Positions 40,638-54,628 of a stretch of 64,000 bases of DNA are shown one piece after another. A program made the position numbers and the translations under genes. Within the stretch, counting starts at the first letter, position 1. Every line of letters begins with the position of its first letter. Below the pieces are notes generated by a model that was not told where the DNA came from, searched no databases, and saw only the letters and a program-made list of their open reading frames with translations. This DNA comes from a virus (Duplodnaviria > Caudoviricetes): IMG/VR virus record IMGVR_UViG_3300032280_000442, positions 192,001 through 256,000 of that record. One strand, 5' to 3'.

Positions 40638-43600
40638 TTAAGGTATACAATCCATTTCTGTTGTTACGGATTCAACCACACCTGAAGCATTTACATAAAC
40701 CCCATCATAAATAATAGCACCACTATTACATTCCCCATTTCTAAATAACGCACCAAAACCAGGACCATTACACGATACATATGATGTTAATTGTGGATTA
40801 TCATAGAACTGAGTTCCAACTACTATTGAAGGAGATAGTGAGTATACCGTTATTTCATCACAGTTGTATTGATAAGGTAGACAACATCCAAACAAATTAT
40901 ATGTGTAAACAGTTGGTCTTGTCGGTGTTGGTGTTCTTGTCGGTGTTGGAGTTTGTGTTCTCGTAAGTGTTGGTGTATTTGTTGGTGTGGTTGTTGGAGT
41001 TTGTGTTGGTGTTAATGTTGGTGTTCTCGTAAGTGTTGGTGTTGGGGTGTTAGTTGGTGTTGGACAAGCAAACGCGTTAACTGTAGGTGCCGGTAAAACA
41101 CCTAGTTCCGCTAATCCCCACGAGGTTTCCTGATAAGGATATTGTGGTGGAGGTGTAGTGTTACCATAATAATAAGTAGCCTCATCATCAGAGTTATATA
41201 TACTCCACACTGTTATTCCTAAAACTTCTTGAAGAATAATACTAAAAGCATTGTATACGTAGTATGGCCTATTGAATCCATTTAGTGTGTAATTACCAGC
41301 ATATGTGTACGTACCATTCGCCCCAACACTTCCAGCTCCACTAACACATACACTACCTGCAGGTGTTGTAGTTGGCGTAATTGTTGGTGTGCGTGTGAGT
41401 GTTGAAGTGTTTGTTGGTGTTAAAGTATTTGTTGGAGTTAAAGTATTTGTTGGTGTTACACTTGGTGTTGTTGTATTAGTTGGAGTTATAGTGTTTGTAG
41501 GTGTTACACTTGGTGTTGTTGTATTAGTTGGAGTTATAGTGTTTGTAGGTGTTATACTTGGTGTGACTGTATTTGTCGGCGTCACTGATGGTGTTACACT
41601 TGGTGTTGTTGTATTAGTTGGAGTTATAGTGTTTGTAGGTGTTATACTTGGTGTGACTGTATTTGTCGGCGTCACTGATGGTGTTACACTTGGTGTAGGA
41701 GTCACCGTTGGTGTAGGACCATTAATTGTAAATGTAAAATCATCCACAGGACAAAATTCTTCACCACAATCAGGACAATCCGGATTAAACATATTAAAAG
41801 TATCCTTTAATAAATTAAAATTATGTTTAACCTCAGGTGCGGATAATGGTGAGACATACATTCTGAATTGAGATATAGCCCCATCAAATGTTCCTCCAAA
41901 ATTTTGTTCCAATAATATATTTGTGGTTAACCCACTATACATAGTACCAACTAAATCATTTGTTGGTAAAGATTCGGGGTCTTGAATATATGTTGTTCCG
42001 GTTGTTGATGAGAATGTTAAATTTTCTCTTAAACCCTGTGTTCCACCACCCCACGAAATATTAAACGGAACACCAACTTGTTTTTCTTTATCTGTATTTA
42101 AACCTCTTGGAATAATCTCCTCAAAATTCTCTATAGTAAAAAATCTTCTACCATTAATATATATTTTTAGTCTACCTTTTCTATAATGTTTATCAATTAA
42201 CCATTTTTCGTTTAAATCAACTAATTCAACTTCACCCGGTGCTGGATATCCTACTTGAGTGTATGGAGGTGCGATTAATGACATTGAATTGTTAGCTAAT
42301 GATTCTAAAAGTTTTCTTTCAGTTATATCTCCTAATCCTCCACGATACCACAAATCACAAGTATCTAACCAAGTGTATCTTTCCCATACCGCATCAAGTT
42401 GGAACCAATGTTCTTCTTCCAAATACGCAGGATTTACATTCTCACAATAATCATATATTCCTGTTGGAGAACAATACTCAGTTATAGTATATCCTGTTTG
42501 ATAAGTTATCCCACTAGTCTCACAAGACCCTGTTGTAACACAATCACCAGTAAATCTTAATACTTTAACACCTATTGATGGATTATGTGGGTCACCACAT
42601 AATTTAAATGAAATCGCGTTGGATATTGAATCAAATAATGGGTCCGTTTCACAAGTTGATTGGACTGATGATTCACAAGTATGGTTTCTACATTCCCATC
42701 CACAGATATCATTTTCAAATGTTGGGCAACCACAAGATGAACAAACATAAGACGATGAATTACAACCACAAGTATTACAACCATAATTATGATGAGGGTC
42801 GTGGTCACCATTAATACTTCTTGGTGGATAAACATAGATACAACGACTATCTGTTACCCCTGTATTACAACAAGCACAAGTTTCTAACCCAACTAATCCG
42901 GAAGTAACTCGAGTATAAGCGGATATCCCACCCATAAATCCATCCGCGTGATGATAAAATTTATTCTCAGCACGAGTTCCCATATAAAAGAATATATTTT
43001 TATTTTGGGGATAAACAACATTTAATGTTGTTTCACCTGAAGATGGTGAGTATTCGTTATTTTCCGGAAATCTTGGTTTTAATAACATTTCAACAGACCA
43101 TCCTTTATTCATCCTTTCAGGGAATATCTCGTAATCATAACCAAATAACTTGTAAAATCCTTGATAAAATCCACCATATAATTGGTGGATGTTAGTTCCA
43201 CTAATTAAATCATACTGACTAATAACCTCATATAATATGGTTTTATTAAATCCTGTAAATCTAATATTACTACTAGTATATCCTGTAACTTGGAACATTT
43301 TAAATCGTCTATCAAACGATAATCTATCAAACTTAGTAAAATCATTAATCCCATTGGTAAATGTTATTGTTTGTCCGGTCATACCTGTAACCAATCCATT
43401 ATCAATTCCGGTTAAACCAATATCACAAGATGTGTTAGCGGTTAAACAACTTAAATCTAAATTATCAGGATTATAATAGTTTTTAGAAACAAAAACATTA
43501 TTAAAATTGTAATGTTTATAAATTAAAGAATATTGTTGGACAGAACTACTATCGTCAATATCAAAATAAAATGGTAATCTATTACCGTATGTTTGAGCAA

Positions 43601-43730
43601 TAAGATATGGTGAGAAAACAACTTCTTCATTAAAGTTTCTCTCATCGCTAACTAATGACATATCATTAGATTCTAACCCTAATTTTATACCCCAATTTGG
43701 TTTTGGAAATTGATTTATATTTTGACTCAC
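40638..43730 (-). CDS. Large structural protein with LamG/concanavalin-like domain and PT stalks
   Basis: GWSVEMLLK, GRLKIYING, FDGAISQFRMYVSPLSAPEVKHNF; Cys-rich insert; long PT tracts. ORF track start is a GTG. Confidence 0.7.
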   Translation of the reverse strand: MSQNINQFPKPNWGIKLGLESNDMSLVSDERNFNEEVVFSPYLIAQTYGNRLPFYFDIDDSSSVQQYSLIYKHYNFNNVFVSKNYYNPDNLDLSCLTANTSCDIGLTGIDNGLVTGMTGQTITFTNGINDFTKFDRLSFDRRFKMFQVTGYTSSNIRFTGFNKTILYEVISQYDLISGTNIHQLYGGFYQGFYKLFGYDYEIFPERMNKGWSVEMLLKPRFPENNEYSPSSGETTLNVVYPQNKNIFFYMGTRAENKFYHHADGFMGGISAYTRVTSGLVGLETCACCNTGVTDSRCIYVYPPRSINGDHDPHHNYGCNTCGCNSSSYVCSSCGCPTFENDICGWECRNHTCESSVQSTCETDPLFDSISNAISFKLCGDPHNPSIGVKVLRFTGDCVTTGSCETSGITYQTGYTITEYCSPTGIYDYCENVNPAYLEEEHWFQLDAVWERYTWLDTCDLWYRGGLGDITERKLLESLANNSMSLIAPPYTQVGYPAPGEVELVDLNEKWLIDKHYRKGRLKIYINGRRFFTIENFEEIIPRGLNTDKEKQVGVPFNISWGGGTQGLRENLTFSSTTGTTYIQDPESLPTNDLVGTMYSGLTTNILLEQNFGGTFDGAISQFRMYVSPLSAPEVKHNFNLLKDTFNMFNPDCPDCGEEFCPVDDFTFTINGPTPTVTPTPSVTPSVTPTNTVTPSITPTNTITPTNTTTPSVTPSVTPTNTVTPSITPTNTITPTNTTTPSVTPTNTITPTNTTTPSVTPTNTLTPTNTLTPTNTSTLTRTPTITPTTTPAGSVCVSGAGSVGANGTYTYAGNYTLNGFNRPYYVYNAFSIILQEVLGITVWSIYNSDDEATYYYGNTTPPPQYPYQETSWGLAELGVLPAPTVNAFACPTPTNTPTPTLTRTPTLTPTQTPTTTPTNTPTLTRTQTPTPTRTPTPTRPTVYTYNLFGCCLPYQYNCDEITVYSLSPSIVVGTQFYDNPQLTSYVSCNGPGFGALFRNGECNSGAIIYDGVYVNASGVVESVTTEMDCIP
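41453..41696. repeat. Exact 90-nt tandem duplication (30 aa) preceded by a 48-nt partial copy in a PT tract
   Basis: 41501-41590 is identical to 41591-41680; 41453-41500 equals the first 48 nt of the unit. Confidence 0.9.
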
Positions 43731-46474: not shown

Positions 46475-46533
46475 ATTTTAAAATAGTTTCCTTTTGATTA
46501 AACCGGTATATTTATATAATAAAAAATTATGTT

Positions 46534-47448
46534 ATGGATATTAAAACTGAAAAAAAAATTATCTCCGAATATAAAAAGGGAAAAAGTAGTTTAGACATTG
46601 TTAAAATTGTTGGTTTATCAAAACCTACAATCCTTAAAGTATTAAACAAACATAATCTCGTTAGAAAAAGAGATAGATGTTCCACATTAGATATTAAAAA
46701 AGAGGGGGAAAGATATTATATAACTCGTAAATGCCCTAAATGTAATAAAGACATTAAAACAACTTCAAAAGATAAAGTAATTGCGTGTAGGAATTACTTT
46801 AACGCAATTAATAGCCATCATAATTGTGTTAAATGTATGTCAGAATCATTTATTGGGGAGGGAAATCATTTCTTTGGTAAAACACATACCAAAGAAAGTA
46901 TTAAAAAAATGTCTAAAAGTAAAACAGGTCAATATACCGGAGACAAAAACCATATGAAACAAGAAAAATATCGTCAAATGAGTAGAGATATTATGAGGTC
47001 AAATTGGGATAACGGTATTTTAGATAGAAAAGTCATTTCAGAACAAATGAAACAAACTCAGAGAAGTGGTAAAATTAAATCCGGTATAATATCAAAAAGA
47101 GAAAAAGAAATTGTTAAAGAAATAAAACAATTGGGTTATAAACTAATTCATTCATATCGTGTTGATACTAAAATTTGTGATGTATACATACCATCATTAA
47201 ATTTAATTATCGAATATTTTGGTGACTATTGGCATTGTAACCCCAAAAAATACGAATCGGATTTTTTTAATAAAAAAAAGGGTAAGTTTGCTTGGGAATT
47301 ATGGGATTATGATAAAAAGAAACTTGAATTAATCAAAAGTTATGGTTATAATTTAGAAGTTGTGTGGGAGGGTGACCTTAAACTCAACAATAAATTAATA
47401 GAAATCATAATAGAAAACTATGTCACAAAACTCACTTCAACGCCCTAA
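46534..47448 (+). mobile_element. Free-standing homing endonuclease (HTH + Zn ribbon + NUMOD3 + Vsr-like/EDxHD-type nuclease)
   Basis: SLDIVKIVGLSKPTILKVL (HTH), CPKC...CVKC, GEGNHFFGKTHTKESIKKMS (NUMOD3), CDVYIPSLNLIIEYFGDYWH. Confidence 0.8.
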
Positions 47449-48681
47449 CGGTCAAGAAAAGATTAGCGTACTTGTACTGCCATCTGACCGTACGGGCGTT
47501 GGTTAAATCAAGGTAAATTTAGGTCAGTTGACCCCCACGTATTCCTACAAAACCTGTATCCGGATGACTTCCACGTAGATATTGACTACGAACCACAGAT
47601 AAATAATGTCGAATATTGGAAAAAATATCAGATAGTTCACGCTCACAGAACAATTGGGCAAGATTATAATATCGCACCTCAATTAATTGAATGGTTAAAA
47701 TCAATTGGTATTATTGTTATTATTGACCTTGATGATTATTGGTTACCAACTAAGGAACATCCAATACATAATATTATTGTTAAACATAAAATTGATGAGA
47801 AAATTAAGGCAAACTTAAAAGTTGCGTCATATGTAACAACCACTACGGATATTTTTGCAAATGAAATTAAAAAATTAAACAAAAATGTTATTGTATTTCC
47901 AAACGCAATTAATCCAAAAGAATTACAATTTAATCAACCAACACCTCCATCAGATAAAATTAGAGTAGGATGGTTAGGTGGTTCATCTCATTTACACGAC
48001 TTAGAATTACTTGGCGGGTTTGTACAAAAAAATCAAGATATTAACGATAAATTACAATACGTTATTTGTGGGTTCGATACAAGAGGGACTGTTACGGAAA
48101 TTAACCCACAAACAGGAGAAGAAAAACAAAGAGATATTTTACCTCACGAAACAGTGTGGGCTCGTTATGAAGAGATTTTTACCACTAACTATAAGACAAT
48201 CGATGATGACTATAAAAAGTTTTTATTAGAGTTTAAAGAAGGTGAATACAATTCAGGAAATAATTTACCATATGTTCGAGTTTGGACTAAACCTGTTACT
48301 ACTTATGCTATGAATTATTCAAAATTTGATATATCTTTGGCACCAATTAAAAACCATATTTTTAATGTAATGAAATCTCAGTTAAAAGTGATTGAAGCTG
48401 GATTTTATAAAAAAGCGTTAATTGCGTCTGAGATTGGTCCTTATACAATTGATTTAGTTCATTGTTTAAAAAATGGTGAGTTTAATGAAGAAGGTAACGC
48501 TATTCTAATTCCTGAAAATAGAAATCATAGTGATTGGGCTAAATCGATTAAGAAATTGGTTCAAAATCCTGAAATGATTAAAGTATTGGGTGAGAGATTA
48601 TATAATACCGTTAAGGATAAATACGATTTAAATATTGTAACAAAAAATAGAGCAGAATTTTACAAATCTTTAATAAAATAA
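47420..48681 (+). CDS. GT-B (GT4-like) glycosyltransferase interrupted by an 11-nt insert; predicted 416 aa if 47504-47514 is bypassed
   Basis: 47420-47503 encodes MSQNSLQRPNGQEKISVLVLPSDRTGVG then TAA; a second frame is open 47515-48681 (KFRSVDPH...DLDDYW...GWLGGSSHLHDL...FDISLAP...KSQLKVIEAG) with no ATG/GTG/TTG for 213 codons. Confidence 0.8.
47438..47514 (+). other. Candidate ribosomal bypass element: GC-rich hairpin + take-off GGT + TAA + landing GGT
   Basis: CAACGCCC (47438-45) pairs with GGGCGTTG (47494-501); ACGGTCA (47448-54) pairs with TGACCGT (47485-91); GGT 47501-03, TAA 47504-06, GGT 47512-14. Confidence 0.6.
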
Positions 48682-48683
48682 AA

Positions 48684-49385
48684 ATGATAAAAATACCTTT
48701 AAGTAAAATATTGTTTCTTGATATTGAAACAGTAGGTGGTTGTAAAAATTATACCGAGTGTCAAGTTAGTAATCCAAATGTTGCAAAACAATTTGAGAAA
48801 TATTTCGATTGGTTCCAAAAAAGATTTCCGGAAGATGCCGGTTTTTCTACCGATAAGGTTTTTGAAAAAAGAGCTGCATTAGTTCCGGAGTTTGCAAAAA
48901 TTGTTTGTGTTAGTGTCGCATTTGTTATGGACAACGGTGATATTAAAAAACAATCATTTTCAGGTGACGATGAAAAATCATTATTAAAAGAATGTCAATC
49001 ATTACTTAATCGTTGTGGTAAATTAGATTTTTATCTATGTGGTCACAATCTTAAGAATTTTGATATTCCAATGTTGGCAAAAAGAATGATTATAAATGGA
49101 TTAATGCCCCCATCAATCTTACCGTCATATGATACTAAGCCGTGGGAGATTAAAGCTATTGATACCAAAGAAATTTGGCAGTACGGAGCCTACACAGCAA
49201 TTGGGTCATTAGACCTAATGTGTTCTTGTATGGATGTCCCTTCACCAAAGGAAGGTGATGTTACCGGAGATAAAGTTCACGACGCATATTGGAATAAAAA
49301 TATGTTACCTGAAATCACAGCTTATTGCGAACGTGATGTATTGGTATTGATTGACGTAATAAAAAAATTAAAAGAATTAGAATAA
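48684..49385 (+). CDS. Stand-alone DnaQ-like 3'-5' exonuclease (PolB-exo type)
   Basis: LFLDIETV, GHNLKNFDIP, YCERDV. Confidence 0.85.
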   Translation: MIKIPLSKILFLDIETVGGCKNYTECQVSNPNVAKQFEKYFDWFQKRFPEDAGFSTDKVFEKRAALVPEFAKIVCVSVAFVMDNGDIKKQSFSGDDEKSLLKECQSLLNRCGKLDFYLCGHNLKNFDIPMLAKRMIINGLMPPSILPSYDTKPWEIKAIDTKEIWQYGAYTAIGSLDLMCSCMDVPSPKEGDVTGDKVHDAYWNKNMLPEITAYCERDVLVLIDVIKKLKELE

Positions 49386-49987
49386 TGGATAATTTTGACG
49401 AATTAGCAAAATTAAGAGATAGATTGCTTAATTTACAAGAAACTTTTTCATCTGAAACTGGTGAGATAAATTATGATGACATTTTAAATGAAATGGATGT
49501 TGATTTAAAACAAATTGAAGAAAATATTGTTGAAAATAACACTAAATTAGATTTACCTTATCAAATACTTCATCCGGACACAATCCATCCAAAATACAAT
49601 TACGATAGTGACTCAGGATTTGATTTACATTCAACAGAAGAGGTTACTATACCCCCATTTGGTAGAGCATTAGTTCCAAGTGGGTTAGCCTTTGATATTA
49701 GAGATGGTTTTGAAATTCAAGTAAGAACAAAAAGTGGTTTAGCTATCAATCAAGGTCTTATGGTTTTAAACTCACCGGGAACCGTAGATAATGGATACAC
49801 AGGAGAAGTTAAAGGAATTATATTCAACACAAACCCTACTGAGGTGACAATCCCAAAAGGTATGAAATTTGGTCAAGCAGTTTTATGTCCTGTTGTAAAT
49901 GGTGCTTGGGTTGATTTAAATCAAGTTGCAAAAATAAATAAAAAAGAACGAGGAGCTAACGGATTTGGTTCTACAGGTATATTATGA
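49385..49987 (+). CDS. dut: Trimeric dUTPase with N-terminal extension
   Basis: SGFDL, RTKSGLA, NSPGTVDNGYTGE, GQAV, RGANGFGSTG. Confidence 0.92.
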   Translation: MDNFDELAKLRDRLLNLQETFSSETGEINYDDILNEMDVDLKQIEENIVENNTKLDLPYQILHPDTIHPKYNYDSDSGFDLHSTEEVTIPPFGRALVPSGLAFDIRDGFEIQVRTKSGLAINQGLMVLNSPGTVDNGYTGEVKGIIFNTNPTEVTIPKGMKFGQAVLCPVVNGAWVDLNQVAKINKKERGANGFGSTGIL

Positions 49988-51378
49988 TTACAATAGTTTA
50001 CTCAACACATAAAGACGAAACTTATAATAACAAATTTAAACAACATTTGTTACAAACTGTTGGTTTAAAAAATGTTCAAATTTTAGAATACACAAACTAC
50101 AATCAATATAGTTTAACTGAAGTTTATAATAAAGGTTTAAACGAATCGGTTAATGATATTGTTGTATTTTGTCATAACGACATTATTTTTGAAAAAGAAT
50201 ATTGGGGTAAACGAGTTTTAGAACATTTTGTTAAAAAACCTGAATATGGTATATTAGGTGTTGCCGGGACATCATATTACCCTAGTTCTGGAAGATGGTG
50301 GGACATACAGGGTGAGATGATTGGTCAAGTTTATCACCAACACGAAGGTAGAAAATGGTTATCTGAATATAATAAACCATTTGGTAATAAAGTAATTGAT
50401 TCTATCATTGTTGATGGACTTTTCTTTGCGGTTAAAAAAAGTAATTTAAAAACTAATTTTGACGAATCATTTACCGGATTTCATTTTTATGATACTTCAT
50501 TTTGTATGAGTAATCATTTATTAGGCGTTAAAATTGGGACAATTTCAAATGTTGCATTAACACATCTTTCTATTGGTATGACTAATAATCAATGGGAACA
50601 GAATCGATTATTATTTTTAGAAAAATACAAAGAAAGTTTACCTATTAAATTAGAATCAAAATACCCTATAAGTAAAATTAATCCAAAATTACCTTTGGTT
50701 TCTATAATAATACCAATTTATAATTATGGGGTTCAATTTGAAAAGGCGTTACAATCAGTATTTAACTCTACTTACAAAAACATAGAGATTGTTATTGTCG
50801 ATGATGGGTCTACAAACACTTATGTTAAATTAAAATTAGATAGTATTAAAGACCATCCAAATGTTAAAATTATTCATCAAGAAAATCAAGGACCTTCTTC
50901 TGCAAGAAATAATGGAATTAAAAATTCTAATGGTGATTTAATATTACCATTAGATGCCGATGATATGGTTCAACCTGACTATATCCAATTATGTGTTAAC
51001 ATATTGAAAAACAATAAAAATATAAGTCCGGTTTATTGTGATACTCATCATATTGGGCAAACTCAAGGTATTGAGGTAAGACCTGAATGGTCATTAGAAA
51101 GATTAAATAAAGGACCATTTATTGTTAATTGTTCTATGTTTCACAGAGAGGCATTTGATAAATGTGACGGATATGATGTCGAATTAAAAGGGTGGGAAGA
51201 TTATGATTTATGGCTTAGAATGGGGATTAACGGATATGTAGGTAAAAGAATACCTAAACCTTTATTTATATATTTTCATCACGAAATTGATGGAACGGTA
51301 TCTTCTGAAGCTAACGTTAATCAAATTGAATTACACCAAAAAATATTAAACAAAAACTATAGTAATGAAATTATTTGA
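49984..51378 (+). CDS. Two-domain GT2-family glycosyltransferase
   Basis: VFCHNDI...VDGLFFA...FHFYD; second domain VSIIIPIYN, VDDGS, GPSSARNNGI, LDADD, WEDYDLWLR. Confidence 0.85.
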   Translation: MITIVYSTHKDETYNNKFKQHLLQTVGLKNVQILEYTNYNQYSLTEVYNKGLNESVNDIVVFCHNDIIFEKEYWGKRVLEHFVKKPEYGILGVAGTSYYPSSGRWWDIQGEMIGQVYHQHEGRKWLSEYNKPFGNKVIDSIIVDGLFFAVKKSNLKTNFDESFTGFHFYDTSFCMSNHLLGVKIGTISNVALTHLSIGMTNNQWEQNRLLFLEKYKESLPIKLESKYPISKINPKLPLVSIIIPIYNYGVQFEKALQSVFNSTYKNIEIVIVDDGSTNTYVKLKLDSIKDHPNVKIIHQENQGPSSARNNGIKNSNGDLILPLDADDMVQPDYIQLCVNILKNNKNISPVYCDTHHIGQTQGIEVRPEWSLERLNKGPFIVNCSMFHREAFDKCDGYDVELKGWEDYDLWLRMGINGYVGKRIPKPLFIYFHHEIDGTVSSEANVNQIELHQKILNKNYSNEII

Positions 51379-51994
51379 AAAATTTGACAAAGTATATTGT
51401 ATTAATTTAGACCGAAGACCGGATAGATTAGAAAATTTTACTAAAGAAGTCGAGAAACATAACTTAGGTGAATTTGAAAGATTTTCAGCATATGACGGTA
51501 AACAATTAAATTTAACTAATGAACATAATTTAAAACCAGGTGAGATTGGTGTAATAAAATCTAATTTAGATATTATTAAAAACGCAAAGAAAAATAATTA
51601 TAAGACCATTTTAATTATTGAGGACGATTGTGTGTTCAATGATGAGATTGTTAATTTTGAAGATTATTTTAATCAACTACCTAATGATTGGGATATGATA
51701 TATATGGGAGGTAATCACAATACTCATATGGGAGTTAATCCTCCTCAACAAATTAACGATAAAGTTGTAAAATTACACTCAACATACTCAGCACATTTTA
51801 TTGGGATTAAATCGTCTGTATTTGACCACATAGAAGTTTTATTAGAAAGAGGTCAACAACCGTTAGACGTTGAATACGTTAAATTACAAAAAATATTTAA
51901 TTGTTATTCTTTTACTCCAGCATTAACAAGTCAATTAGTTAATTTTTCAGATATTCAGGAATCAACAACAGATTATAACTGGTTAATAAAATAA
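51365..51994 (+). CDS. GT25-family glycosyltransferase
   Basis: YCINLDRRPDR, ERFSAYDG, GEIG, LIIEDD, WDMIYMG. Confidence 0.85.
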   Translation: MKLFEKFDKVYCINLDRRPDRLENFTKEVEKHNLGEFERFSAYDGKQLNLTNEHNLKPGEIGVIKSNLDIIKNAKKNNYKTILIIEDDCVFNDEIVNFEDYFNQLPNDWDMIYMGGNHNTHMGVNPPQQINDKVVKLHSTYSAHFIGIKSSVFDHIEVLLERGQQPLDVEYVKLQKIFNCYSFTPALTSQLVNFSDIQESTTDYNWLIK

Positions 51995-51995
51995 T

Positions 51996-52814
51996 ATGTC
52001 AGAAATAATATCAACAGCTTATTTAATGGGGGGACTTGGGAATCAAATGTTCCAAATGTCTCACGCATTATGTCAAGGTTGGAAAAATAATATCCCGACT
52101 AAATTTAGACCGTCATCGTATACTCCGATGCAAGCCAATCAACCAACAAAATATTTAGACAATATTTTCAGAAATGTTGAATTTACTAATGATATACCTG
52201 AGACAATACGAATTGAGTCAGGTTGGGGATATACACCACTTAATCCTTCTTGGTATACGTCTATAGAATTTTTTGGTTATTTTCAGAGTAATAAAAACTT
52301 TTTAGGTTATGATGAAAAAATAAAAGAATTATTCCAACCAACAGAGGAGTTCATCAATAAAGTAAAATCATTATATCCAGAAATTAATAATGATGGAACG
52401 TTATCTGTACACATTAGAAGAGGTGATTACACAACAATAAGTCACGTTCTTCCTGTTATAGATAAAACATATATCGATGAAGCAATCAGACAAAATGGTG
52501 ATTACTCAACGTTATTTATTTTTTCAGATGACGTTGATTGGATAAAACAAAATCTATCATATCCAAATCAAATTATTGTTACTGAATTAGAAGATTATGA
52601 AGAACTATGGCTTATGTCGTTATGTAAAAATAACATAATGTCAAACTCAACATTTTCTTGGTGGGGAGCGTTTTTAAATAATAACATAAATAAAAAAGTA
52701 TACACTCCAAGCCTTTGGTTTGGGCCTGCCGGAGAATATAATTTCCAAGACATATATTTAGATTCTTGGACAAAAATAAACGTAACCTATTCCGAAGGAA
52801 AATTAATTTTTTAA
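51996..52814 (+). CDS. GT11 alpha-1,2-fucosyl/colitosyltransferase
   Basis: GGLGNQMFQ, GYFQS, HIRRGDY, FSDD, NSTFSWWGA. Confidence 0.9.
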   Translation: MSEIISTAYLMGGLGNQMFQMSHALCQGWKNNIPTKFRPSSYTPMQANQPTKYLDNIFRNVEFTNDIPETIRIESGWGYTPLNPSWYTSIEFFGYFQSNKNFLGYDEKIKELFQPTEEFINKVKSLYPEINNDGTLSVHIRRGDYTTISHVLPVIDKTYIDEAIRQNGDYSTLFIFSDDVDWIKQNLSYPNQIIVTELEDYEELWLMSLCKNNIMSNSTFSWWGAFLNNNINKKVYTPSLWFGPAGEYNFQDIYLDSWTKINVTYSEGKLIF

Positions 52815-52817
52815 AAT

Positions 52818-53582
52818 ATGAATTATTTACAAGGACAAAAATTTAGAGAAATATACGATAACAATAAAATTTACTATTGTGATACACACGATGTAAATTC
52901 ATTTTTTGATAATATTAATTTTACACACGATTTTGTGTTGGTATCACACAACAGTGATGGTAATATAACAGATAACCCTATTAGACATTATGACGCTGAT
53001 GTTAAAAAAATCCCTAAAAATTTAAAAAAATGGTTTGGACAAAATCTTAATTACGAATCAGAGATTATTGAGTCATTACCTATTGGTTTAGAAAATTCAC
53101 AATGGTTTCCGGAAACAAGAAAAATTGAGAAGTTATTTAACATTAATTCAACACCAAAAAATATTAAAAATTTGGTTTATTTAAATTTAAACATATTAAA
53201 TAATCCGGGTGTTAGACAACCAATTTATGATATGTTAAACGATAAACCATATGTCACAACACAATATGGTAGAAATGGTTTGGGTTATGATGAATATCTT
53301 GATAACGTATACAACCATAAGTTTATGATTTGTCCTGAAGGTAATGGGATTGATGTCCACCAGCCTTGGGAATCTTTATACGTTAACACAATTCCAATTC
53401 AAAAGAAAAATATTAATAACAGTAATTGGAGGGAATTACCAATTTGTTGGTTAGATGATTGGGAACAATTAACTGATGAAAATTTTTTAATATCAGAATA
53501 TAAAAGAATATCTGAAACAAAATTTGATTTATCTAAATTAGATTTTGATTATTGGAAGAATAAAATACAAAATTCCATATGA
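52818..53582 (+). CDS. Exostosin/GT47-like glycosyltransferase
   Basis: LPIGLEN, KFMICPEGNGIDVHQPWESLY. Confidence 0.6.
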   Translation: MNYLQGQKFREIYDNNKIYYCDTHDVNSFFDNINFTHDFVLVSHNSDGNITDNPIRHYDADVKKIPKNLKKWFGQNLNYESEIIESLPIGLENSQWFPETRKIEKLFNINSTPKNIKNLVYLNLNILNNPGVRQPIYDMLNDKPYVTTQYGRNGLGYDEYLDNVYNHKFMICPEGNGIDVHQPWESLYVNTIPIQKKNINNSNWRELPICWLDDWEQLTDENFLISEYKRISETKFDLSKLDFDYWKNKIQNSI

Positions 53583-54628
53583 AAATAATAGTAATTGGTG
53601 CCGGTATTTTTGGTATTACAACGGCACTAACATTATCCGAAAATGGGTATGATGTGACATTAGTAGAATGTGAAAATGATATAATGACTAAAGCCAGTAA
53701 ATGTAACCACAATAGATTACATTTTGGGTTTCATTATCCAAGAAGTATTAAAACTGCAAAACAAAGTTTAGACGGATATGATTTATTTTATAATAATTTT
53801 TCAAATTCAGTATTAACTAATTTTCCAAATTATTATTTAATTGAGAAAAATGGTAAAATATCCGGTGATGAGTTTAAACTATTTTGCGATGAATTAGACA
53901 TATATTACAAAGAATCATCTCCCAATAATATTGAAGTGGATATGAGTAATATTACTTTATCAACAATAACTAATGAACCAATATTTGATTTTGAATCTAT
54001 TAAAATCGATTTATCAGAAAGATTAAAAAATTCAAAAGTTAGTCTAATTTTAAATAAAACAATAACGTCTGTTTCAGACTTATCCGGGTTTGATGTCGTT
54101 ATTAATACAACATATCGTAATATTAATAAAATTAATGAGTTGTTCAATATCGAACCCATAAAGTTAAAATTACAAGATGTTATTGTCCCAATATTTAAAA
54201 TGAATTCTGATAAGATTGGTTTAACAATTATGGATGGTGAGTATTGTACTATTATGCCAAAAGGGTTTGAAACGAATACTTTTTTATTATACCACGTAAA
54301 ACACTCGGTTCTTAAACAAATTGAGGATTATGTGATTCCAAATAATTGGGTTAATAATGACCCGGAGTATATTAATAACAAAATAAATGAAATATACGAA
54401 TCTTCAAAAACTTACTACCCATTCTTAAAAGATTGTGAGAAAATATCATATTGGAGAACAGTTAGAGCATTACCAATTAATGATGACGATGAACGTTTAA
54501 GTACGTTAACTCTTAATAACGTTGGTGATAAAAAAATAATAACATTATTGTCAGGTAAAATAACAACTTGTTGGTTAATGTCTGAAAAAATATTAAAAAT
54601 ATTAAATGAAAACACTACTAATAGGTAA
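53579..54628 (+). CDS. FAD-dependent oxidoreductase
   Basis: IGAGIFG, ASKCNHNRLHFGFHYPRS, SGKIT. Confidence 0.8.
   Translation: MKIIVIGAGIFGITTALTLSENGYDVTLVECENDIMTKASKCNHNRLHFGFHYPRSIKTAKQSLDGYDLFYNNFSNSVLTNFPNYYLIEKNGKISGDEFKLFCDELDIYYKESSPNNIEVDMSNITLSTITNEPIFDFESIKIDLSERLKNSKVSLILNKTITSVSDLSGFDVVINTTYRNINKINELFNIEPIKLKLQDVIVPIFKMNSDKIGLTIMDGEYCTIMPKGFETNTFLLYHVKHSVLKQIEDYVIPNNWVNNDPEYINNKINEIYESSKTYYPFLKDCEKISYWRTVRALPINDDDERLSTLTLNNVGDKKIITLLSGKITTCWLMSEKILKILNENTTNR

Follow-up and report, generated by a model that had tools for sequence, protein, structure and literature searches.

There are very few systems in which programmed translational bypassing is established, and the force that moves the ribosome forward is still debated. 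In the best-known case, that of phage T4 gene 60, the bypass sits within the MobA homing-endonuclease element (bioRxiv 10.1101/2022.08.31.505936; 10.1101/2024.12.09.627546). The bypass insert blocks self-cleavage by MobA (bioRxiv 10.1101/2022.08.31.505936), and pairing of the exiting mRNA has been proposed to push the ribosome (bioRxiv 10.1101/2024.12.09.627546). A 10-nt bypass was described in the terminase gene of Streptomyces phage Hau3, with the junction peptide shown in E. coli (PMC10732093). The synthetic stop-hops (+5 and +6) of Weiss et al. 1987, covered in a 2016 review, were low-level and unstimulated, and no natural in-frame stop hop was known to that review (PMC5009743). Vsr-like homing nucleases have been described as well (PMC2677866).

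Here we describe a glycosyltransferase (GT) gene of an uncultured lake phage that is interrupted by a stop codon and eight bases that a selfish nuclease gene introduced. It lies in a window of 64,000 nt (positions 192,001 to 256,000 of IMGVR_UViG_3300032280_000442; window coordinates are used throughout unless noted) that belongs to a complete 308,574-bp phage genome. The first-pass annotation of this DNA had suggested a short programmed bypass and had named the comparison of homologs as a check. That comparison supports the suggestion through direct joins in intact relatives, variable gaps and matched codons in broken relatives, and a covarying stem. We consider it probable that the gene is part of a homing cassette and is read through by programmed translational bypassing, in the manner of T4 gene 60/MobA though with an unrelated gene, nuclease and RNA layout.

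Results

A stop-containing gap in a glycosyltransferase gene

The gene starts at ATG 47420 and runs to the take-off codon GGT (47501-47503), which is followed by TAA (47504-47506), five bases, the landing codon GGT (47512-47514) and the codons for Lys-Phe-Arg. When 47504-47514 are left out, frames of 28 and 388 codons fuse into a single one of 416 aa, and the first ATG, GTG or TTG of the downstream frame lies 213 codons on. The layout, the joined frame and the 213 start-free codons were all confirmed as first described when the sequence was re-read. Because the identical junction recurs in three further assemblies (L036, L037, L073), with variants in dozens more, an assembly error is ruled out and the 11-nt insert is real. 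Stop-codon reassignment was rejected, since TAA, which ends 316 of the 389 long frames, is the main stop codon of the genome.

Comparison with homologs indicates that the enzyme requires both of its halves. In the nearest homologs, which are mostly 405-407 aa long, Lys-Phe-Arg comes immediately after Gly (or Ser), and natural intact proteins of 416 aa with an N-terminal extension exist. An intact homolog, modelled with a pLDDT of 91.6, has a fold that matches the GT4-type enzymes MshA, PglA and BshA; in this model, the first frame corresponds to the first core beta-strand and the break falls at the start of helix 1. Broken alleles are stored as fragments of 375-380 aa, which shows that gene callers cut such genes short. 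Cultured phages contain only distant relatives of the GT (33% or less). The features of the locus are collected in Table 1.

Table 1. Features of the interrupted glycosyltransferase locus in the window.
Feature	Position	Strand	Basis
Mobile cassette replacing the native promoter and the first 18 GT codons	46489..47514	+	blastn boundaries
TATTTATA motif, candidate phage promoter upstream of the endonuclease	46509..46516	+	TATTTAT enrichment; putative function
Putative free-standing homing endonuclease, 304 aa, with Cys motifs, NUMOD3 and Vsr-like C-terminal domain	46534..47448	+	
Cassette-encoded N-terminal extension, 10 extra codons, including the hairpin 5' arm	47420..47455	+	
5' hairpin with a core of 9+7 bp, its 3' arm ending within the take-off codon	47437..47502	+	
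Cassette copy of the first GT beta-strand and Gly loop	47456..47503	+	dN/dS 0.19; strand E5-10 in intact-homolog model
Take-off codon GGT (Gly28)	47501..47503	+	GGY or AGY in every broken allele
Coding gap of 11 nt, made up of the stop TAA (47504-06), five bases and the landing codon GGT (47512-14)	47504..47514	+	
Intact 388-codon rest of the glycosyltransferase (GT-B, GT4-like)	47515..48681	+	PHROG glycosyltransferase E 5e-41
Small 3' hairpin, outside the signal	47522..47533	+	12/49 broken vs 14/45 intact alleles

Variable gaps and matched codons at one position

Loci were fetched by the GT, the neighbouring nuclease and two DNA patterns, and were parsed into 50 distinct broken and 45 intact alleles. 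The landing site was placed by a downstream protein motif, independently of any codon match, and the alleles found by the DNA patterns are preselected for the stop and the codon match. Another four alleles fetched afterwards were all broken, with the hairpin in the three that were folded, and bring the total to 54 distinct broken alleles, all interrupted at the same GT-B codon. The gaps measure 5, 6, 7, 8, 9, 10, 11, 12, 13, 43 and 44 nt. Every frame is represented: of 50 gaps, 31 keep the frame, 15 shift it to +2 and 4 to +1. A near-identical sister of the window allele (L273) carries one extra A and hence a gap of 12 nt. A stop directly follows take-off in 49 of 50 alleles (TAA 26, TGA 21, TAG 2), among them all short-gap alleles.

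Take-off and landing codons of 49 alleles are identical at codon positions 1 and 2 in 98% and 100% of cases, compared with 49% at position 3 and 2-20% at the four preceding bases. In the window allele the two codons are fully identical (GGT/GGT), as pointed out earlier; across the family the match is confined to positions 1 and 2. Same-tRNA wobble pairs account for 42 of 50 codon pairs; the other eight (GGY to GGA, AGT to GGC) are not standard pairs of this kind, and seven of them are in frame. Since the landing codon is the ancestral Gly of the gene, a Gly-Gly match is partly expected, and the Ser alleles are the informative cases. Five of the six combine an AGY take-off with an AGC landing, in at least two lineages and from unbiased endonuclease queries, whereas intact Ser alleles use TCN codons instead. 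GGG is found at none of 44 landing sites, compared with 13 of 42 intact Gly codons.

The two long-gap alleles (L262:2971-3013, 43 nt; L278:2471-2514, 44 nt) consist of Gly, Ala, stop, a 10-bp GC-rich hairpin, an AU-rich spacer and GGT, and are more T4-like than the short-gap alleles. The Ala codon between Gly and the stop makes their take-off codon ambiguous, and the two hairpins differ in sequence with the pairing kept. Binding at the A site can be blocked by a hairpin close to the entry channel (PMC7282821), and the 10-bp hairpin, which lies just after the stop, could take over from it as the pause. Behind a related nuclease, a different glycosyltransferase family shows the same layout (L093:2365-2460), with a hairpin of -33 kcal/mol, the Ser codon TCT, a stop and an 8-nt gap. 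Its apparent landing triplet, ACC, matches at positions 2-3 only, an intact relative (L130) folds at -10, and the gene also seems to contain an intein.

A hairpin coupled to the gap

The arms of the 5' hairpin pair 47437-47445 with 47494-47502 and 47448-47454 with 47485-47491. Its energy in the window allele is -27.3 kcal/mol, with a z of -4.8 against synonymous recoding and of only -1.8 against dinucleotide shuffles of a 161-nt stretch. A GC-rich stem ending in take-off had been noticed before and stands, with 9+7 rather than 8+7 bp; it lies 5' of take-off, and the T4 take-off/A-site loop has no counterpart in it. The hairpin is present in all 49 complete broken alleles (-25 to -35 kcal/mol), in which codons of the extension pair with codons just upstream of take-off, and it ends at take-off. 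Mean z against synonymous recoding is -5.7 for broken and +0.4 for intact alleles, the latter with a mean fold of -8.4. The best control is provided by natural gap-free alleles that kept the extension, and in these the hairpin has decayed (-4.6 to -13.4 kcal/mol). The covariation in relatives that the first-pass annotation had proposed as a check was found, with 41 double-sided stem changes against 14.8 in shuffled data. A control slid by +1 gave 47 such changes against the 41 in the true register, which is attributed to a register shift in some alleles, and RNAalifold returned no consensus structure on the raw alignment (A2) of alleles.

A stretch of 11-23 nt after the AUG (17 in the window allele) is unpaired across alleles and would leave initiation free. 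The helix ends only 4-12 nt upstream of landing, so the hairpin is probably not fully zipped when the ribosome lands. The position of the helix end and the length of the gap are correlated (rho 0.57); the alleles are related, and the correlation is hence not counted as evidence. The small 3' hairpin, formerly read as part of the signal, does exist, but its frequencies in broken and intact alleles (Table 1) speak against that role; it is a by-product of the Arg-Ser-Val-Asp codons.

In the GGC-TGA-GGY subclade (L132-L149, L274, L276), the 3' arm of the hairpin can instead pair with post-landing bases at about -20 to -24 kcal/mol, possibly as a switch that is not general. A general T4-like gap-spanning helix was rejected, as it is strong in one subclade only and reaches a z of -0.9 for the window allele. 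Purifying selection on the loop codons likewise led to rejection of a longer hop, one that would leave from the Gln codon at the hairpin base and skip the entire hairpin.

A putative homing-endonuclease cassette at the start of the gene

In blastn comparisons with endonuclease-free intact relatives, similarity ends at 46488 and resumes at 47511/47512, which identifies 46489-47514 as the replaced segment. The putative endonuclease within it matches NUMOD3 (E 3e-8) and PHROG endonuclease families, source names read 'very short patch repair', and D216, E227 and H234 are invariant in 27 homologs. Its 3' end overlaps the GT start by 29 nt. The N-terminal extension occurs in 49 of 49 complete broken alleles and is absent from 44 of 45 intact ones; it combines low synonymous change with a dN/dS of 0.6 and little residue conservation. 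The copied segment, which resembles the 'homR' of MobA, differs at 9-23 of 48 nt from intact genes that are otherwise close, and the exact copy seen in the window also stands before a GT differing by 60% at synonymous sites (L077).

The nuclease adjoins 44 of 50 broken alleles; in five alleles it has been lost while the gap persists. Changes of the broken state number 22 on the GT tree (20 of them forced by strong branches) and 4 on the nuclease tree. The break travels with the adjacent nuclease. This endonuclease, which the first-pass annotation had omitted, explains the origin of the gap. Such a nuclease also adjoins 19 of 45 intact alleles, and the gap is therefore not the sole form of protection. 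A clade of shorter nucleases of about 253 aa lies at the same site beside intact genes (L009, L010, L011, L038, L046, L184-L197, L207). Near-identical GT genes carry either the ~253-aa or the longer nuclease cassette, which suggests that the two cassette types are competing homing elements.

Genomic context

Of the 2375 stops screened in the 308-kb genome, seven passed a loose screen for a matched codon, an open frame and a hairpin. The GT site has the strongest hairpin of the seven, and one other 11-nt look-alike among them is antisense to real genes. Neither the covariance model nor the screen of all stops revealed a second bypass element in the genome. GTDB genomes yielded distant nucleases only, and the covariance model found no element at those loci.

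Shine-Dalgarno-type motifs occur in only 4 of 202 genes, which is consistent with the Bacteroidota host that we infer; the motif TAnnTTTG shows a modest excess (23 vs 10). TATTTAT stands upstream of 78 of the 278 genes, against a mean of 15 and a maximum of 26 in shuffles. The genome has 19 tRNA genes, tRNA-Gly(TCC) among them. Outside the window, a 343-codon frame has a weak RNA-ligase-like match at C1:303936-304352 (- strand; E 3e-6, below the Pfam cut-off). In the window itself, 40638-43730 (- strand) encodes a protein of 1030 aa that combines Cys-rich segments with an extended region of Thr/Pro repeats; the glycosyltransferase cluster next to it may use this protein as a substrate. The GT gene is followed at 48684-54628 by overlapping genes for a 3'-5' exonuclease and a dUTPase, together with several further glycosyltransferase-like and oxidoreductase-like proteins.

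Alternative explanations

Each allele might instead be rescued by ordinary recoding, with read-through of the stop in the in-frame alleles and -1 or +1 frameshifts elsewhere; in the window allele a -1 shift would insert Leu-Asn-Gln-Gly before Lys. The downstream frame is indeed open back to 47488, and imperfect codon matches cluster in the in-frame alleles (7/31 vs 1/19, p 0.13). Such a mixture is nevertheless unlikely: it would place three mechanisms behind one hairpin, even in sister alleles one base apart, and would leave the Ser/Ser switching unexplained, while no slippery heptamer, no stop-to-sense revertant and, in 224 proteins, not one with extra residues at the junction was seen. It is quite improbable, too, that the gap is removed in the RNA, whether as an enzyme-cut micro-intron or through RNA polymerase skipping between short repeats. 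One register of the window allele reads GT...AG and the genome holds the weak RNA-ligase-like gene, but GT...AG is not kept in the 12-nt allele or in the Ser alleles, gaps shrink to 5 nt without shared ends, the three stop codons interchange, and the repeat is limited to codon positions 1-2 of the reading frame. The genome contains no RtcB or group I intron, the window has no Rfam hit, and with the gap ends of the alleles included, neither a ribozyme core nor conserved splice ends were found.

Split genes beside endonucleases are known (PMC2677866; bioRxiv 2022.08.31.505936), and many alleles have an ATG 9-13 codons past landing, as would suit a 28-aa peptide that associates non-covalently with a C-terminal chain started separately by re-initiation. 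We regard this as highly improbable, given that the first start ranges from codon 4 to codon 213, the latter in the window allele, that the break at the start of helix 1 directly follows a core strand, and that the matched codons would be unexplained. Selection also argues against it. Among close broken alleles, dN/dS is 0.19 in the copied strand, 0.08 in the first 32 post-landing codons and 0.11 up to the first possible start, so that selection is strong from the first post-landing codon and both halves of the broken gene are under purifying selection. The same values bear on whether the gene is dispensable and merely knocked out by the cassette. Glycosyltransferases of phages may have accessory roles, and broken alleles have near-identical intact neighbours; however, broken-only clades are deeply diverged with low dN/dS, and the hairpin is retained only together with the gap. 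The signs of decay that the first-pass annotation had named, a raised dN/dS and further lesions downstream, are both missing (0.08-0.11; no second lesion in the downstream frames of 50 broken alleles), and a pseudogene is hardly credible.

Discussion

We propose that the start of a GT-B gene was exchanged for the copy carried by a homing-endonuclease cassette, and that this copy ends in a spacer containing a stop. By analogy with MobA, the spacer probably breaks the target site of the nuclease. Translation would begin at ATG 47420; having opened the hairpin, the ribosome would pause when GGU 47501 is occupied by peptidyl-tRNA-Gly and the A site by UAA. Re-formation of the hairpin from the exiting mRNA would then push the ribosome forward, whereupon the tRNA would let go, slide 11 nt and re-pair with GGU 47512, and decoding would resume at Lys to give the 416-aa enzyme. 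For the family as a whole, we think it reasonably likely that widespread, independently evolved homing cassettes of large freshwater phages have as their entire bypass signal one hairpin, which re-forms behind the ribosome and moves it across a stop, over 5-13 nt, to the next matching codon. If so, they include natural in-frame stop-hops, of which none was known as of the 2016 review, and bypassing would be a third general route, after introns and inteins, for homing nucleases inside genes. The exiting-mRNA pairing model (bioRxiv 2024.12.09.627546) can be tested directly with this cassette of roughly 100 nt, of which nature supplies over 50 versions that vary in gap, stop, codon pair and stem, gap lengths included, as well as loss-of-gap controls. 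A literature search, with subscription journals outside its coverage, found no publication on the family described here.

The shortness of the hop, put forward as new in the first-pass annotation, is preceded by the published 10-nt hop of the Hau3 terminase (PMC10732093). Both systems have a short gap in a phage gene and a 5' stem-loop proposed as stimulator. Hau3, however, pauses on a hungry UUA, has an internal Shine-Dalgarno and is thought to be regulatory, in a paper that does not mention homing, whereas the GT alleles have a stop codon, a variable gap and a nuclease cassette. The Weiss stop-hops, as reviewed in PMC5009743, have matched codons flanking a stop, with 9 nt decoded as one residue, which is the exact form of the 5- and 6-nt alleles; the GT sites differ in being natural, conserved and hairpin-linked. 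The mitochondrial byps of Magnusiomyces, as bioRxiv 2022.08.31.505936 describes them, are likewise mobile inserts made harmless through bypassing and tolerate imperfect matches. They are 27-55 nt long, contain an unused codon instead of a stop and are read by yeast mitochondrial ribosomes, and no nuclease cassette is described for them.

Compared with T4 gene 60, the host gene is a GT-B glycosyltransferase rather than the topoisomerase II large subunit, and is not also split in two; the nuclease is NUMOD3/Vsr-like rather than the HNH MobA; and the gaps are mostly 5-13 nt rather than 20-50. The T4 take-off codon lies in the 5' arm with an A-site loop, whereas in the GT alleles it lies at the 3' base of the 5' hairpin, a single hairpin of ~65 nt wholly 5' of take-off. 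The mini Shine-Dalgarno about 6 nt before the T4 landing site is absent, the gap bases being A/U/C-rich; there is no conserved 3' barrier hairpin, broken and intact alleles being alike; and the nascent chain is only 26-29 aa, with a poorly conserved extension. The general marks of bypassing are nonetheless found, namely matched codons, an A-site stop in 49 of 50 alleles and resumption independent of frame. So is a MobA-like design: an adjacent free-standing endonuclease overlaps a cassette-encoded N-terminal extension, a homologous replacement segment has sharp boundaries, and the insertion falls at a conserved Gly with a stop after take-off. As in T4 gene 60/MobA, the element has been gained and lost repeatedly, the nuclease is sometimes lost while the gap stays, and a push by pairing of the exiting mRNA is proposed.
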